A stretch of DNA of 5,181 nt. Source: a virus. Lineage: Duplodnaviria > Heunggongvirae > Uroviricota > Caudoviricetes. Within the stretch, counting starts at the first letter, position 1. Every line of letters begins with the position of its first letter. The position numbers and the translations under genes are program-made. The notes below the pieces were generated by a model. That model was not told the origin of the DNA. It searched no databases and was given only the letters and a program-made list of their open reading frames with translations. Location of the stretch: IMG/VR virus record IMGVR_UViG_2778261227_000008. The stretch is one strand, 5' to 3'. This document shows, in pieces, positions 1,355 to 5,181 of the stretch.

Positions 1355-1382
1355 ACCTTCCTCGGTTTAGTGTTTTTTTGCG

Positions 1383-1445
1383 AGTTTAGTGTTTAATAAA
1401 CCATTAAGTCAAGTATTTGCTTGTTTAGTGATTACTAAAGATAAT
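1383..1445. promoter_or_regulatory. Divergent promoter/operator region between ydaS and the repressor gene
   Basis: Minus-strand promoter candidate: -35 TTGACT (rc of 1407-1412), 18-nt spacer, -10 TAAACT (rc of 1383-1388). Plus-strand candidate: -35 TTGCTT 1417-1422, 17-nt spacer, -10 GATAAT 1440-1445. The 11-bp palindrome GTTTA-A-TAAAC at 1391-1401 lies in the minus-promoter spacer. Direct repeats GTTTAGTG(T/A)TT at 1365-1375, 1384-1394 and 1423-1433. Elements read by eye, not scored. Confidence 0.5.
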
Positions 1446-1451
1446 TACCAC

Positions 1452-1823
1452 ATGCAAAAAAAAGAAATTCGCCGTTTACGTCTCAAGGAGTGGTTTAAAG
1501 ATAAAACTCTGCCACCCAAAGAGAAGAGCTACCTATCTCAACTAATGAGTGGGAGAGCCTCGTTTGGAGAAAAGGCTGCCAGAAGAATAGAGCAAACATA
1601 CGGGATGCCGGAAGGGTATCTGGATGCGGAATACGCAGAACAACCGGAGGTTTCTCCACCACATGCAGGGTTAACGTCTAATCAACTGGAATTATTGCAG
1701 ATTTTTTCAGCCTTCCCTGAGGATGAGCAACGCCAGATAATCAGCGAGTTAAAGCAGAAAAAAGAATCAATGGAAGACCTCATAGCGAGATGGATTGCGG
1801 CGCAAAAATGCCGCCGCGCCTGA
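1452..1823 (+). CDS. paaR2: HTH transcriptional regulator of a three-component toxin-antitoxin operon, 123 aa; occupies the prophage repressor position
   Basis: ATG at 1452, in frame within track ORF 1389..1823; the GTG at 1389 has no SD. XRE-like segment EKSYLSQLMSGRASFGEKAARRIEQTYGMPEGYL. It is divergent from the Cro-like gene and followed by an antitoxin-toxin pair. Identified as paaR2 from memory of the E. coli O157:H7 paaR2-paaA2-parE2 system; paralogue number not verifiable here. Confidence 0.65.
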   Translation: MQKKEIRRLRLKEWFKDKTLPPKEKSYLSQLMSGRASFGEKAARRIEQTYGMPEGYLDAEYAEQPEVSPPHAGLTSNQLELLQIFSAFPEDEQRQIISELKQKKESMEDLIARWIAAQKCRRA

Positions 1824-1843: not shown

Positions 1844-2035
1844 ATGAATAGAGCCCTTTCACCAATGGTTTCTGAGTTTGAAACCATTGAACAAGAAAAC
1901 AGTTACAACGAATGGCTGCGTGCGAAAGTAGCAACGAGCCTTGCAGATCCGCGCCCAGCAATTCCTCATGACGAAGTTGAGCGCAGAATGGCAGAACGCT
2001 TTGCTAAAATGCGCAAGGAACGGAGCAAGCAGTAA
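1844..2035 (+). CDS. paaA2: Small antitoxin, 63 aa (PaaA2-like)
   Basis: ATG at 1844 with SD GGAGGA at 1835-1840, in frame within track ORF 1790..2035. Product is MNRALSPMVSEFETIEQENSYNEWLRAKVATSLADPRPAIPHDEVERRMAERFAKMRKERSKQ. Its stop is 1 nt before the toxin start. Size and position fit the antitoxin of the ParE2 system, as recalled. Confidence 0.7.
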   Translation: MNRALSPMVSEFETIEQENSYNEWLRAKVATSLADPRPAIPHDEVERRMAERFAKMRKERSKQ

Positions 2036-2036
2036 A

Positions 2037-2315
2037 ATGTTACCCGTATTATGGCTTGAAAGCGCAGATACCGACTTGGATGATATAACTGGTTATATTG
2101 CTCGTTTCGACATAGATGCGGCAGAACGCTTATGGCAGCGATTAAGGGGTTGTGTGCTGCCGTTATCCGAACACCCGTATTTATACCCACCAAGCGACAG
2201 GGTGCCTGGCTTGCGTGAGATTGTGGCCCACCCTAACTATATAATTCTATACCGCGTAACAACATCAAGCGTTGAAGTAGTAAACGTGATCCACGCAAGA
2301 CGCCAGTTTCCCTAA
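2037..2315 (+). CDS. parE2: RelE/ParE-superfamily toxin, 92 aa (ParE2-like)
   Basis: ATG at 2037, in frame within track ORF 1941..2315. C-terminal pattern YIILYRVTTSSVEVVNVIHARRQFP is typical of ParE/RelE folds. Tightly coupled to the upstream antitoxin. Confidence 0.7.
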   Translation: MLPVLWLESADTDLDDITGYIARFDIDAAERLWQRLRGCVLPLSEHPYLYPPSDRVPGLREIVAHPNYIILYRVTTSSVEVVNVIHARRQFP

Positions 2316-2386
2316 CTTTCACTACCAATAGAAACATAACAACCGCAACGACTTTATCAAAAGCGTTGTGTTTGTTTCGTGTTGTG

Positions 2387-2428
2387 GTTTAGTTTTTACT
2401 TGACTTGAGTTTAATGTTTATTAAACTA
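2387..2428 (+). promoter_or_regulatory. Second operator/promoter copy (PL-like) pointing rightward toward the ydfA-like gene
   Basis: -35 TTGACT 2400-2405, 16-nt spacer, -10 TAAACT 2422-2427. Palindrome GTTTA-T-TAAAC at 2416-2426. The 22-mer gagtttaatgtttattaaacta (2407-2428) matches gagtttagtgtttaataaacca (1382-1403) at 19 of 22 positions. Half-site-like GTTTAGTTTTT at 2387-2397. Confidence 0.5.
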
Positions 2429-2603
2429 CAAATACCAACCCACCCCGCCCCACAGAATGCAGGGCAATACTTCGAGTTACCCGGCAGTGGTCAGGGGTTA
2501 AGTAGCCAGCCCGAGGCGTATGAACATGACGGCAGGGTTCAACTTTAACTATGCAGCAGGTTTTTGTTCCGCTACCCCGGCGTTAAGGGGAAATGAGGTC
2601 AAC

Positions 2604-2756
2604 ATGGATACTATCGATCTTGGCAACAGCGAATCTCTGGTATGTGGCGTGTTTCCCAACCAGGACGGTACGTTCACCGCGATGACGTATACCAAAAGCA
2701 AAACGTTTAAAACCGAAGCTGGCGCGCGTCGCTGGTTATCCAGAAATACTGACTGA
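2604..2756 (+). CDS. Small YdaF/YdfA-like prophage protein, 50 aa
   Basis: ATG at 2604 with GAGG at 2594-2597, in frame within track ORF 2520..2756. Product MDTIDLGNSESLVCGVFPNQDGTFTAMTYTKSKTFKTEAGARRWLSRNTD resembles the ~51-aa Rac YdaF / Qin YdfA proteins as I remember them. First gene after the PL-like promoter. Confidence 0.55.
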   Translation: MDTIDLGNSESLVCGVFPNQDGTFTAMTYTKSKTFKTEAGARRWLSRNTD

Positions 2757-3142
2757 TGAGATTAACGATGGAATTTAAAGATTTACCAACACCTTTCCAG
2801 GAAATGGCAGCGAATATAGTTCGTTCTCAATTGGCGACTCTTGACCTGAGTACCGTAGAAAAAGAAACCATAGATAATATATCCGGTAACGTGCGCCGTG
2901 CCTTTATCGGGTTGTACGAAGAGAAGCAGCACTCTGATAAGCATGATTCCTCTGAAAAATACTTCCTGGAATTAATGGATATCATTAACAAGGGGTTTGG
3001 TTTGTTGATGGAAAAGAAAGGGATTCGAATAGAACCCCTTAAAAACCATTTTACTGAGTGCAACATTAATTCCTGTGATTTAAAGCATCCCACTTCAGAT
3101 GGGAAAGTTGAAGCCAACTATAAAATATCAATTAATCATTAA
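2756..3142 (+). CDS. Hypothetical protein, 128 aa (124 aa if started at ATG 2768); no domain recognised; apparently AT-rich
   Basis: Track ORF 2756..3142. The ATG at 2756 overlaps the upstream stop (TGATG). Base composition looks clearly more AT-rich than flanking genes by eye (not computed). No motif I can assign. Confidence 0.5.
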   Translation: MRLTMEFKDLPTPFQEMAANIVRSQLATLDLSTVEKETIDNISGNVRRAFIGLYEEKQHSDKHDSSEKYFLELMDIINKGFGLLMEKKGIRIEPLKNHFTECNINSCDLKHPTSDGKVEANYKISINH

Positions 3143-3198
3143 GTTCTCCACGGGTGAGGTGGAGAACATGCGCCGGACACGGATAAATCTCCGGCATG
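3143..3198. terminator. Two hairpins between convergent genes; candidate bidirectional terminators
   Basis: Hairpin 1: GTTCTCCAC 3143-3151, 7-nt loop, GTGGAGAAC 3159-3167 (perfect 9-bp stem). Hairpin 2: CATGCGCCGGA 3167-3177 pairs with TCCGGCATG 3190-3198 with one bulge, followed by CTCTTT. No strong U-tract on either strand. Confidence 0.4.
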
Positions 3199-3220
3199 CT
3201 CTTTAACATTCTGGATATTC

Positions 3221-3667
3221 CTAACCACAAAGAAATCGCATCAATTTAGATTTTGTGGGCAGCTTCTCTTGTTGTTCGATGGAAACGCCTATTTTGATCT
3301 GTGTTTTTAAGATCGCAATATCTTTAAGTGATGACCAAATATGATCATCCGTTTTTTCCAGAATTTTTAACTGCATTTTCAATTCAGAATCAGAATATTT
3401 TTCTGCATCATCAAAAAGCTGCAAATATTCTGCGGATTTTCTCATGGCGTTACCTGACTTTTGTCCGAATCCATAAATCGTTTGGACGGTTGCGATCACA
3501 ACAATAAAAACGCCAGAAATTTCCGGAATGAATCCGCCAATGACAGATGAACCGAGGATAATACTCACCACTGAGAGAAGTTTATCGAGACGACCAGTCG
3601 CTACAGAAAATAGTTGCTCAAGAAAATAGCCATATAAAATTCTGTCAAGAATATCATCCCGGTCCAT
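3221..3667 (-). CDS. Small two-transmembrane membrane protein, 148 aa; SieB-like (superinfection exclusion) by position, or a SLATT-like 2-TM effector
   Basis: Track ORF; ATG at 3667 with AGGTGA upstream. Two hydrophobic helices (LLSVVSIILGSSVIGGFI and ISGVFIVVIATVQTIYGF) followed by a charged helical tail. Orientation opposite to the PL-like operon and adjacent to a ydaF-like gene, as sieB is in Rac. Functional name is inference. Confidence 0.55.
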   Translation of the reverse strand: MDRDDILDRILYGYFLEQLFSVATGRLDKLLSVVSIILGSSVIGGFIPEISGVFIVVIATVQTIYGFGQKSGNAMRKSAEYLQLFDDAEKYSDSELKMQLKILEKTDDHIWSSLKDIAILKTQIKIGVSIEQQEKLPTKSKLMRFLCG

Positions 3668-3673
3668 ACATCA

Positions 3674-3820
3674 TCACCTGCTTGTTTGGTTGTTGCTGTT
3701 CCCCCTCTCCTCCGAAGGAGCTGGAGATGGTTTTGGTCGAATGTTTTTCTCTGGTATGTGATCCCAGACTGTTTTATGTGTCGAATTGCCACCACCTGCT
3801 TGTGCTCTTTGCTCTGTCAT
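3674..3820 (-). CDS. Possible small ORF, 48 aa, immediately upstream of the two-TM gene; uncertain
   Basis: Internal ATG of track ORF 3674..3937, with AAGGA 6 nt upstream. Its stop TGA is 7 nt before the two-TM gene ATG. Product MTEQRAQAGGGNSTHKTVWDHIPEKNIRPKPSPAPSEERGNSNNQTSR is hydrophilic and low-complexity. A plus-strand ORF at 3727..3882 with SD AAGGAG competes for the same DNA. Confidence 0.25.
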   Translation of the reverse strand: MTEQRAQAGGGNSTHKTVWDHIPEKNIRPKPSPAPSEERGNSNNQTSR

Positions 3821-4119
3821 ATGATTTCCTTGGATCGTTGGGGATATCCAGATTATACAGATTTCTTGTCGTTGGGGAATGACAGGAACCACCTCGCCTG
3901 ACGTGGTTAAAAGCAGGCACACAACACGAAAGCGCACGGCGAAGTCATTTCTCCCTCTGTTGCGTGTCGCCGGTATCTTCGACCGTGCGCTTCCGGTTGT
4001 GGCACTCCGCGAAATGGCGCGGCGGTAAGTATGGCGGGGTTATCCTTACCCCCACTGGTAGCACCGGGTTGTCAGGTTGACCATACGCCTGAGTGACAAC
4101 CCCGCTACAACACTCCATG

Positions 4120-4176
4120 TTGATTTGTACCTTTGGCGGCATCAGTTTCATTGCTGGCTGATGTCCCCCCTTTTTA
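4120..4176 (+). ncRNA. dicF: DicF-like small RNA with terminator-like 3' hairpin and U-tract
   Basis: Sits directly upstream of dicB as in the Qin dicB operon. Segment TTTGGCGGCATCAGTTT matches my recollection of E. coli K-12 DicF (TTTGGCGGTATCAGTTT). Stem CATCAG/CTGATG extended by G-C pairs and followed by CCCCCCTTTTT (4165-4175). 5' boundary is estimated; the 5' portion differs from K-12 as I recall it. Confidence 0.5.
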
Positions 4177-4178
4177 AA

Positions 4179-4340
4179 GTGAATTTTGTGATGCGGTGAA
4201 TGCGGCTGAGCGCACGCGGAACAGTTAAAAAGCGATTAGTTCCCCCGTATCGGGTGTTTATGGGTTTCCCTGTATCCGGCGTTAATTGTTAACTGGTTAA
4301 CGTCACCTGGAGGCACCAGGCACCGCATCACAAAATTCAT
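4179..4340 (+). other. 20-bp long-range inverted repeat bracketing the dicB leader
   Basis: GTGAATTTTGTGATGCGGTG at 4179-4198 is the reverse complement of caccgcatcacaaaattcat at 4321-4340 (19 of 20, the last pair G-U in RNA). The 3' arm ends 4 nt before the dicB SD (GAGGA 4345-4349). Confidence 0.6.
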
Positions 4341-4356
4341 TGTTGAGGACGCGATA

Positions 4357-4545
4357 ATGGAAACGTTATTACCAAACGTTAATACGTCTGAAGGTTGTTT
4401 TGAAATTGGTGTCAGAATCAGTAACCCTGTATTTACTGAAGATGCCATTAATAAGAGAAAACACGAACGGGAGTTATTAAATCAAATTTGCATTCTTTCT
4501 ATGCTGGCCCGTTTACGTCCGACTCAAAAAGGATACTGGCAATGA
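4357..4545 (+). CDS. dicB: DicB cell-division inhibitor, 62 aa
   Basis: Hand translation gives METLLPNVNTSEGCFEIGVRISNPVFTEDAINKRKHERELLNQICILSMLARLRPTQKGYWQ, recognised as DicB. SD GAGGA 7 nt upstream. Confidence 0.9.
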   Translation: METLLPNVNTSEGCFEIGVRISNPVFTEDAINKRKHERELLNQICILSMLARLRPTQKGYWQ

Positions 4546-4733
4546 ATACCACATTTGCACTTGTTCTGACGGTTTTTCTTGTTTCCGGTGAACCGGTTGA
4601 CATGGTTACTGGCGTATACGGCTCAATGAAAGAATGCATGGCTGCCGCAGCGGAACAGAAAATTCCCGGTAACTGTTATCCGGTCGATAAAGTTATTCGC
4701 ATGGATAATAACGAAGTCCCGGCAGGGCTTTAA
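4542..4733 (+). CDS. ydfD: YdfD-like prophage lysis protein, 63 aa, N-terminal hydrophobic segment
   Basis: ATG at 4542 overlaps the dicB stop (ATGA), in frame within track ORF 4488..4733. Product MNTTFALVLTVFLVSGEPVDMVTGVYGSMKECMAAAAEQKIPGNCYPVDKVIRMDNNEVPAGL. Synteny dicF-dicB-ydfD. Confidence 0.8.
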   Translation: MNTTFALVLTVFLVSGEPVDMVTGVYGSMKECMAAAAEQKIPGNCYPVDKVIRMDNNEVPAGL

Positions 4734-4825
4734 ACCAGCACCGTAATAAATATCCGGTTTCATTTTTATATGCCAGCAATGGCAGGGATTTGTTCACCCT
4801 TAAATCTGTAATGAGGTAAAACAAA

Positions 4826-5181
4826 ATGAGTAAAGTCTTTATTTGCGCCGCCATTCCGGACGAACAGGCAATAAAGGAAGAAGGTGCAGTCGCTGTAGCC
4901 ACTGCCATTGAAGCCGGTGATGAACGTCGCGCCCGCGCAAAATTTCACTGGCAATTCCTGGAACATTATCCGGCTGCTCAGGACTGCGCTTATAAATTTC
5001 TTGTTTGCGAGGATAAACCCGGTATACCCCGCCCTGCCCTCGATTCCTGGGATGCTGAATATATGCAGGAAAACCGCTGGGATGAGGAGTCTGCTTCCTT
5101 TGTACCGGTTGAGACTGAATCCGATCCGATGAACGTCACTTTTGACAAGCTGGCCCCTGAAGTACAGAACGCTGTCATGGT
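4826..5181 (+). CDS. ydfE: YdfE-like protein, N-terminal 118 codons; continues beyond the right edge
   Basis: ATG at 4826 with GAGG 9 nt upstream; hand translation is open to the window end (MSKVFICAAIPDEQAIKEEGAVAVATAIEAGDERRARAKFHWQFLEHYPAAQDC...). Not in the ORF track because there is no stop inside the window. Name from synteny after ydfD and recollection. Confidence 0.55.
   Translation, partial: MSKVFICAAIPDEQAIKEEGAVAVATAIEAGDERRARAKFHWQFLEHYPAAQDCAYKFLVCEDKPGIPRPALDSWDAEYMQENRWDEESASFVPVETESDPMNVTFDKLAPEVQNAVM

Follow-up and report, generated by a model that had tools for sequence, protein, structure and literature searches.

An rrn-type boxA and a flanking inverted repeat frame an opposite-strand cargo ahead of dicF in a Qin/Rac-type prophage operon

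How does transcription reach dicF and dicB when genes of the opposite orientation lie between them and their promoter? The question is raised by a 5,181-nucleotide (nt) stretch of viral DNA (Caudoviricetes; IMG/VR record IMGVR_UViG_2778261227_000008), referred to here as the window, which comprises the immunity region and the early-left (PL-type) operon of a Qin/Rac-type lambdoid prophage. Its closest complete match is in Escherichia coli RM8082, whose prophage is 99.8% identical. The original prediction held that the dicF-dicB-ydfD block is separated from a PL-like promoter by a convergent gene, such that dicF and dicB either depend on read-through or are effectively silenced. The explanation that we favor as a whole, and consider probable, is that the early-left operon is read through the reverse cargo, that DicF is obtained by processing, and that Nus-dependent antitermination or RNA looping takes place at a boxA of the ribosomal RNA operon (rrn) type located just ahead of the cargo.

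Transcription into dicF

The + strand from 3100 to 4125 was scanned with a sigma-70 position weight matrix (PWM), using the best scores in shuffles of that stretch as the yardstick. No promoter above shuffle level was found there: the best site scored 8.9 versus a median best of 10.2 in the shuffles, in line with the earlier impression that no convincing sigma-70 promoter precedes dicF. The PL-like promoter proposed at the head of the operon was recovered as a motif (PWM 11.1), and an opposite-strand gene for a protein with two transmembrane (TM) segments is indeed found between this promoter and dicF (Table 1).

The Qin prophage of E. coli K-12 provides a precedent for expression of DicF without a promoter of its own. 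Primer extension at the homologous K-12 module gives only a 5' end generated by RNase III, and reverse transcription-PCR (RT-PCR) spans the interval from ydfA to dicF (PMC10448788). These results, with no internal promoter, agree with the premise of the original prediction that a Qin-type dicB operon is read from its repressor-controlled promoter through the ydfA-type genes. An RNAalifold analysis of eight correctly aligned loci, from which a ninth sequence was left out, revealed a 15-bp stem that is kept in all eight and whose 3' arm coincides with the 5' end of the 190-nt RNA of K-12; the K-12 RNase III site has been mapped at the homologous stem (PMC10448788). Because the stem is conserved at the K-12 cut, the window appears to keep the apparatus that matures DicF from a longer RNA. 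Positions 3976-5181 are 87% identical to the K-12 region, and in other prophages the shared module reaches upstream to about 3880. As K-12 DicF is made without a dedicated promoter and the window preserves the corresponding processing module intact, the proposed dependence of dicF and dicB on read-through gains support, but as the ordinary mode of their expression and not as a defect. For the arrangement found in the window, we infer read-through from the repressed early promoter, which seems far more likely than silencing.

Terminator scanning and folding identified no + strand intrinsic terminator ahead of DicF's own, and neither of the two hairpins downstream of the 124-amino acid (aa) gene is followed by a U-tract on that strand (folding, 3143-3195). 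On the − strand, a U-rich tail follows hairpin 1, which probably terminates the cargo transcript. The hairpins had been placed correctly between promoter and dicF but do not belong to an insert, as the backbone includes hairpin 1 and most of hairpin 2, which K-12 Qin likewise has downstream of ydfC. Another hairpin takes the place of hairpin 1 in locus L086, and variation in the stem of hairpin 2 is limited to a G·U pair in the + sense in one variant. Two gene assignments needed revision as well. The gene described as encoding 128 aa is present but encodes 124 aa, the longer form using an upstream ATG at 2756, and the opposite-strand gene is real but not single, the cassette consisting of a 48-aa open reading frame (ORF) and the 148-aa gene.

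This layout is not a chance juxtaposition, because the region 2700-4120 recurs at ≥98.5% identity in 13 E. coli genomes (14 at ≥80% coverage) and the cargo region 3199-3975 is at least 80% covered in 72 of 5426 complete E. coli genomes. The cassette is found elsewhere behind ydfA-ydfB-ydfC, and also directly behind ydfA, and is therefore independent of the 124-aa gene. About 18 distinct arrangements of the ydfA-dicF interval occur among 80 YdfA-anchored IMG/VR loci. No record with the window's cargo was found in the 'phages' collection, in which the upstream module of DicF alone is present. Opposite-strand genes are common at this place in the operon, which makes for a recurrent, ordered layout: sieB in lambda, sieB in Rac and, in plaque-forming mEp460 as in E. 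coli B, a reverse gene of 66 aa that has a 121-aa gene on one side and dicF on the other.

The position assigned to dicF by the original prediction stands, as an alignment of six loci including K-12 sets it, with its terminator, between the precursor module and the dicB leader. It is not, however, a standard allele, scoring 30.3 bits against Rfam RF00039 (E value 0.001) when the gathering score is 48. The 5' seed, UUUCUGGUGAC, has an 8-nt deletion and substitutions, and the loop reads UUUCAUUGCUGG rather than CUCCG; in K-12 the seed pairs with xylR and the CUCCG loop with the ribosome-binding site (RBS) of ftsZ (PMC5069750). A private G-to-C change weakens the terminator stem from -21.0 to -15.8 kcal/mol. 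The DicF-ftsZ duplex energy is no better than that of shuffles, a comparison that is uninformative, since the naive method is also non-significant for K-12 DicF. DicF falls into at least three allele classes. That of the window, with a rebuilt terminator stem of the KilS type, has the stem GGCGGCAUCAG/CUGAUGUCCGCC in common with the small RNA (sRNA) KilS of Rac (L013 5406-5503), as well as the AAAGTGAATTTTGTGATG leader farther downstream, and KilS therefore looks like a DicF paralog. The promoter of Rac KilS was rejected as a model for a dicF promoter because the upstream regions are not homologous. The dicB leader resembles the Salmonella sRNA family STnc100 (RF02076) at 37 bits, below the gathering score of 47; its 19-bp repeat encloses about 120 nt, the core of the STnc100 match, and may be the RNase III site reported for the 72-nt DicF 3' end.

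An rrn-type boxA and an inverted repeat around the cargo

The 12-mer TGCTCTTTAACA follows directly on hairpin 2 on the sense strand and occurs nowhere else in the window; the 124-aa gene has its stop codon 55 nt upstream, and the reverse gene has its own 13 nt downstream. The core of the 12-mer matches the boxA of rrn operons, UGCUCUUUA (PMC2724277), at nine of nine positions, and GCTCTTTAACA fits GYTCTTTAANA, the functional gamma-proteobacterial boxA consensus (PMC5725501). The motif is located in untranslated RNA, the next + strand gene being dicB at 4357. Together with its 3' flank, it resembles the boxA of the E. coli rrnH leader and 16S-23S spacer: relatives read TGCTCTTTAACAATCTGGAT, the K-12 rrnH leader TGCTCTTTAACAATTT, and the rrnH 16S-23S spacer TGCTCTTTAAAAATCTGGAT. 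The sequence GCTCTTTAACAATCTGGAT of two such loci (L005 and L015) agrees at 18 of 19 positions with the boxA region of the E. coli rrnH spacer, and Lentisalinibacter has the 20-mer GCTCTTTAACAATCTGGATA as the spacer boxA ahead of its 23S rRNA.

The boxA is present in all loci that carry this slot, always in the operon sense and 24-38 nt ahead of the reverse-gene stop. It precedes two unrelated cargo families, one of 148 aa and one of 151-172 aa with CxxC motifs (O157:H7 EDL933, O139:H1, and others), and it is kept in L218, where a 63%-identical copy of the 148-aa cargo occupies an operon with kilR. The copy in L217, a Salmonella P2-like element that lacks hairpin 2, lies behind a DicF-like terminator. 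The match to the consensus is exact even though neighboring bases have changed (L016, L217) and the upstream context differs; a reading of the L016 (O139:H1) boxA as degenerate was rejected, as it fits the published GYTCTTTAANA. When both strands of 546 kb of YdfA-anchored loci were searched, the 12-mer was found 7 times versus 0.08 expected, each time at the slot and on the sense strand. The 70-nt boxA region occurs in 472 of 5426 complete E. coli genomes (~9%), including O157:H7 EDL933. The same scan, which recovers lambda nutL, detected no boxA in the slot-less K-12 Qin, STEC388, E. coli B, mEp460, and Evi. No paper joining boxA, antitermination, and dicB was found in the literature searched.

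The cargo is also flanked by an 18-nt inverted repeat. Its left arm, ATTCTGGATATTCCTAAC, overlaps the stop codon of the 148-aa gene, and its right arm, GTTGGGGATATCCAGATT on the + strand, overlaps the cargo promoter. Among seven distinct arm pairs, all transition mismatches are G·U in the + strand RNA and A·C in the − strand RNA (14 wobble cells versus 0), and the arms of L218 show one compensatory change from U-A to C-G. Because the wobble pairs form only in the + sense, this asymmetry is an argument that the cargo region is transcribed into + strand RNA and that this RNA matters. In rRNA leaders, boxA-bound Nus factors are thought to hold an RNA loop at the polymerase (PMC5725501).

The arrangement can be compared with several known systems. 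With rrn operons and CRISPR (clustered regularly interspaced short palindromic repeat) transcripts it shares an identical boxA core, extended similarity to the rrn spacer, a hairpin before boxA as in the rrn leader, the position of boxA at the start of a long untranslated RNA, and, following boxA, an arm of a helix that would form over a long range, again as in rRNA leaders; in Salmonella, boxA shields long untranslated CRISPR transcripts from Rho (PMC7665894). What sets the boxA of the window apart is its place in the early operon of a phage, where two translated genes precede it and the promoter is about 770 nt away, and the RNA to be protected would be the antisense of the cargo and an sRNA precursor. 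The lambdoid nut sites (boxA-boxB with N) and HK022 put serve the purpose proposed here, processive early-left read-through, and many IMG/VR phage leaders carry the same full boxA. The window, in contrast, has no conserved boxB, no arginine-rich N-like protein, and no similarity to putL or putR. A lambda-type nut site with N was rejected, as no boxB hairpin is conserved between cargo types and the window's proteins gave no N-like Pfam or PHROG match. HK022 putL and putR were located via their inverted repeat and aligned to the window; a put-like RNA after PL was rejected at local alignment scores of 17-22 versus shuffle means of about 20.

Similar elements were seen in other phage leaders. Unrelated phage contigs (L104, L108, L109, L126, L136, L162, and others) combine a strong promoter, a hairpin, and full ATGCTCTTTAACAATCTGGATAA within ~100 nt; the extended, rrn-spacer-identical boxA therefore seems widespread in phage early leaders. 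The PL leader of the window (2434-2560) is ~100 nt longer than that of K-12, and the stretch AGTAGCCAGCCCGAGGCGTATGAACATGACGG (2498-2530) within it is found again in Buttiauxella, Kosakonia, and Izhakiella (L233, L239, L241, L251), where a leader like window positions 2498-2535 is followed within ~40 nt by a hairpin and the same boxA.

A proposed course of transcription and its alternatives

In a lysogen, the 123-aa repressor would act on GTTTAGT-type operators to keep the PL-like promoter off, and the cargo pair would be expressed from its own promoter as a transcript probably ending at hairpin 1. Upon derepression, one long transcript would run through ydfA and the 124-aa gene and then cross ~1.2 kb of untranslated RNA, made up of the antisense of the two-gene cargo followed by the structured DicF precursor; the equivalent untranslated stretch in loci without the slot is 570-710 nt. 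At hairpin 2 and boxA, the polymerase would pick up a Nus complex that would shield this stretch from Rho. The complex may also hold the left arm of the repeat at the polymerase until the right arm emerges, so that the arms could pair and the antisense cargo would be looped out, as proposed for rRNA leaders. DicF would not be transcribed alone but would be released through an RNase III cut at the 15-bp stem and RNase E trimming, as in K-12. Its 3' end would be made by its own terminator, and polymerases reading past that terminator would express dicB, ydfD, and the exonuclease gene, and then, in RM8082, xis (excisionase) and int (integrase). In Rac, where Rho/NusG limits read-through at the syntenic position, kilR is switched on when NusG-dependent termination is lost (PMC5793797), and Rho therefore is a real barrier in such operons.

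Several observations weigh against this proposal. The boxA-bearing loci are related, so that genome counts are not independent events, and descent from one ancestral flank, not selection, may account for the association of boxA with long reverse cargo. Shorter reverse genes (66-106 aa) are found in prophages without boxA. The excess of C over G on the + strand is modest (3590-3707, C/G up to 2.1); this weakens the case that protection from Rho would be needed, and C/G skew, with this modest peak only, was dropped as a predictor of Rho utilization (rut) sites. About six variable sites underlie the G·U asymmetry. Moreover, AAUCUGGAU, the string that follows boxA, is likewise found in rrn spacers and other phage leaders, so that some of the left arm may be a piece of the Nus site and not of the helix. 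A boxA can also repress, as in suhB (PMC5725501). Finally, the DicF of the window lacks the CUCCG loop and carries the private terminator-stem change, and for Rac KilS global transcription start site (TSS) data suggest an independent promoter (PMC8175672).

Some of these points would suit another account, in which transcripts from PL read through without any special device and the boxA-like string and the repeat are conserved only as flanks for homologous cargo exchange. All boxA-bearing loci do share flanks, as would fit a single origin, the scan gave no strong rut-like region, and K-12, mEp460, and E. coli B manage without boxA over 570-670 nt of untranslated RNA. We nevertheless regard this account as unlikely. 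Exchange between flanks leaves unexplained why every slot-bearing locus matches the boxA consensus exactly in spite of altered neighbors and upstream contexts, and why the 12-mer is on the sense strand only; strand-asymmetric mismatches in the arms are not predicted by recombination at the DNA level or by protein binding. It is also conceivable that dicF and dicB are served, independently of PL, by a weak or non-sigma-70 promoter of their own between the cargo promoter and dicF. The possibly independent transcription of the paralogous KilS and the promoter-rich divergent junction at 3837-3880 would fit such a promoter, but the absence of + strand candidates above shuffle level, the K-12 primer extension data, the lack of homology between the Rac upstream region and that of the window, and the conserved RNase III stem, which argues for maturation from a longer RNA, make it quite improbable.

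Least probable of all is the alternative of the original prediction, that the cassette is polar and that dicF and dicB are effectively silenced and decaying. The divergent, sub-threshold DicF allele and the private change in its terminator stem could be signs of decay, and PL transcripts could suffer interference from convergent transcription that starts at the cargo promoter. On the other side, dicB, ydfD, and the precursor module are intact and at least 87% identical to K-12, and the arrangement persists at 85-100% identity in 72 genomes with its ORFs kept. The + strand has no terminator, reverse genes occupy the same place in lambda, Rac, and mEp460, and both the boxA and the + sense helix argue for + strand transcription. 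Farther downstream and in the orientation of dicB, the window has an exonuclease gene, as does RM8082, with xis and int in addition. Read-through assisted at the boxA thus remains the explanation that we prefer.

The surrounding operon and wider reading

The features of the window are collected in Table 1. In gene order, the operon follows K-12 Qin dicBF, with repressor, PL-like promoter, ydfA, DicF precursor, dicB, and ydfD in the same succession; the RNase III stem and dicB leader are conserved, and K-12 DicF is made by processing. The window differs in that the 124-aa gene replaces ydfB and ydfC, about 790 nt of reverse cargo separate hairpin 2 from the precursor, and boxA stands where K-12 has TGACAGTTTACT. 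The DicF seed, loop, and stem and the immunity specificity also differ.

Table 1. Features of the window, with positions counted from its first nucleotide
Feature	Position	Strand	Evidence or remark
YdaT-family gene	630-1055	−	
YdaS/Cro-like helix-turn-helix gene	1052-1354	−	
OR-like operator repeats and PR-like promoter TTGACT-18-TAAACT (1412 to 1383, −)	1364-1440		Between divergent YdaS/Cro-like and repressor-like genes
123-aa repressor-like regulator, cI/DicA position	1452-1823	+	phrog_5736 transcriptional regulator, E 1.6e-39
PaaA2/RelB-type antitoxin	1844-2035	+	Pfam PaaA2, E 1e-19
ParE toxin	2037-2315	+	Pfam ParE_toxin, E 4.5e-16
OL-like operator repeats overlapping PL-like promoter TTGACT-16-TAAACT (2400-2427)	2386-2427	+	Promoter scan
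ydfA (DUF1391)	2604-2756	+	Pfam E 2.6e-28; 92% DNA identity to K-12 ydfA
124-aa gene	2768-3142	+	phrog_6937, E 9e-72; WP_001345627 in RM8082 and strain 1303
Hairpin 1	3143-3151/3159-3167	+	Folding, -15.5 kcal/mol
Hairpin 2	3172-3177/3190-3195	+	Folding
rrn-type boxA	3197-3208	+	
Inverted repeat, left arm	3208-3225	+	
148-aa two-TM membrane protein gene, main cargo gene	3221-3667	−	phrog_6315, E 1.4e-23
48-aa ORF, unannotated, upstream of 148-aa gene	3674-3820	−	Read from sequence; strong RBS, AAGGA
Inverted repeat, right arm	3837-3854	+	
Cargo promoter, -35 TTCCCC (3879-3874), -10 TATAAT (3857-3852)	3837-3879	−	PWM 10.0
DicF precursor module, 15-bp stem 3927-3942/3979-3995 and inner hairpins	3927-4121	+	Alignment, RNAalifold
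Divergent DicF allele (4122-4175 with terminator hairpin 4138-4165 and a U-run)	4122-4170	+	Rfam RF00039
dicB leader, perfect 19-bp inverted repeat 4180-4198/4321-4339	4168-4356	+	Resembles STnc100
dicB	4357-4545	+	Pfam DicB, E 3.9e-36
ydfD/DUF1482 gene	4542-4733	+	
Exonuclease gene	Start 4826	+	

The 148-aa gene most likely encodes a lysogen-expressed membrane protein of the exclusion or abortive-infection kind, judging by its position and orientation. Its family, 23 proteins from a homolog search, is known from Enterobacteriaceae only and has no domains; Pfam, NCBIfam, and PDB sequence searches with the 148-aa protein returned no match. PADLOC gave a weak SLATT match (RTasSLATT, E 0.002) to two of eight family members, with no Pfam SLATT match, and the AlphaFold2 model has a predicted local distance difference test (pLDDT) score of 54, too poor for a fold search. 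Homology to SieB (PF14163) was rejected on the basis of no Pfam match at E ≤ 0.1 and BLASTP E values of 0.2-0.3 versus Rac and lambda SieB. In the small upstream ORF, a HIPEKN(I/V)RP motif and a Pro-rich tail are kept in DNA-diverged copies (L005, L217, L218) and the N-terminal half is variable; a 50-aa called gene takes its position in L218. The cargo promoter has a perfect -10 hexamer and a weak -35, overlaps the right arm of the repeat, and lies in a flank that is conserved before both cargo types. Direct repeats GTTGGGGA (TCCCCAAC on the − strand) at 3838-3845 and 3872-3879 bracket its -10 element; they are kept before both cargo families and could be an operator for a regulator. The second cargo family, also on the − strand in the same slot, consists of proteins of 151-172 aa with an N-terminal coiled-coil-like region, two CxxC pairs, and no family match (L015 2570-3085, L086 4963-5481, L016 2574-3029; also in O157:H7 EDL933).

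In position and orientation, the cargo recalls sieB. Lambda sieB is a reverse gene between N and ral, an opposite-strand membrane-protein gene with its own promoter in the PL operon. The order in Rac is racR, ydaG, ydaF (DUF1391), reverse sieB, KilS sRNA, kilR, and recE, which is the order of the window, with a reverse gene between a DUF1391 gene and an sRNA plus cell-division inhibitor. As with sieB, the cargo would be on in the lysogen and transcribed antisense upon induction. Only position and orientation are common, however, as the window's cargo has no sequence similarity to SieB. In addition, lambda sieB is crossed by N-modified polymerase, whereas no N gene or boxB was seen in the window.

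The immunity region mirrors the lambda order of cI-rexAB, OL/PL, and leftward operon, with the PaaA2/ParE pair in the rexAB position between the repressor gene and OL/PL. In the sister prophage 2013C-3033 (L006), a HigB/helix-turn-helix pair in the opposite orientation is found at this place. The 123-aa regulator gives a weak NCBIfam DicA match over its C terminus, and its gene is also present in phage Evi. GTTTAGT-type repeats overlap the PL-like promoter and recur in the divergent PR-like region, 1364-1440 and 2386-2426 having repeat families D1 and D2 and the inverted repeat I1 in common; the two opposed promoters both score about 11 and have the same hexamers, which together make an OR/PR and OL/PL pattern. 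The top promoter-like site of the window is another one, 2333-2360 on the − strand (TTGATA-16-TATGTT with TG, score 11.4), located just upstream of PL and aimed backwards, antisense into the 3' end of parE. Farther away, two clusters of GTCGTGACAT-type iterons with 10-bp spacing, ~11 copies in all (91-161 and 371-432), fall in a region matching the 5' part of a replication-initiator (O/DnaT-like) gene on the − strand and look like a lambda-style replication origin.

Overall, a boxA with a flanking sense helix at a recurrent slot for reverse cargo is a new context for a known mechanism. A broader reading, which we put forward as a possibility and hold tentatively, is that N-less Qin/Rac-like prophages carry a portable "anti-polarity" slot, in which a mimic of the rRNA-spacer boxA and a long-range helix frame a reverse cargo expressed in the lysogen, and in which Nus recruitment, looping, and escape from Rho would carry transcription on to dicF and dicB or kil, exo, xis, and int. 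The boxA would explain how such a cargo can be carried in reverse within an early operon that has no N protein, and its position would have escaped earlier searches that considered no more than 50 nt ahead of each annotated gene start. DicF, DicB, and Kil inhibit cell division and are toxic, their expression from cryptic prophages has effects on stress survival and on resistance to phages, and termination by Rho and NusG keeps such toxic prophage genes silent. If the proposal is true, expression of the DicF and DicB toxins and prophage excision, including in prophages of O157:H7, would depend on host Nus factors via an unannotated site, and a host-type boxA would be a simple switch that decides whether early-left transcription reaches the toxin and excision genes.

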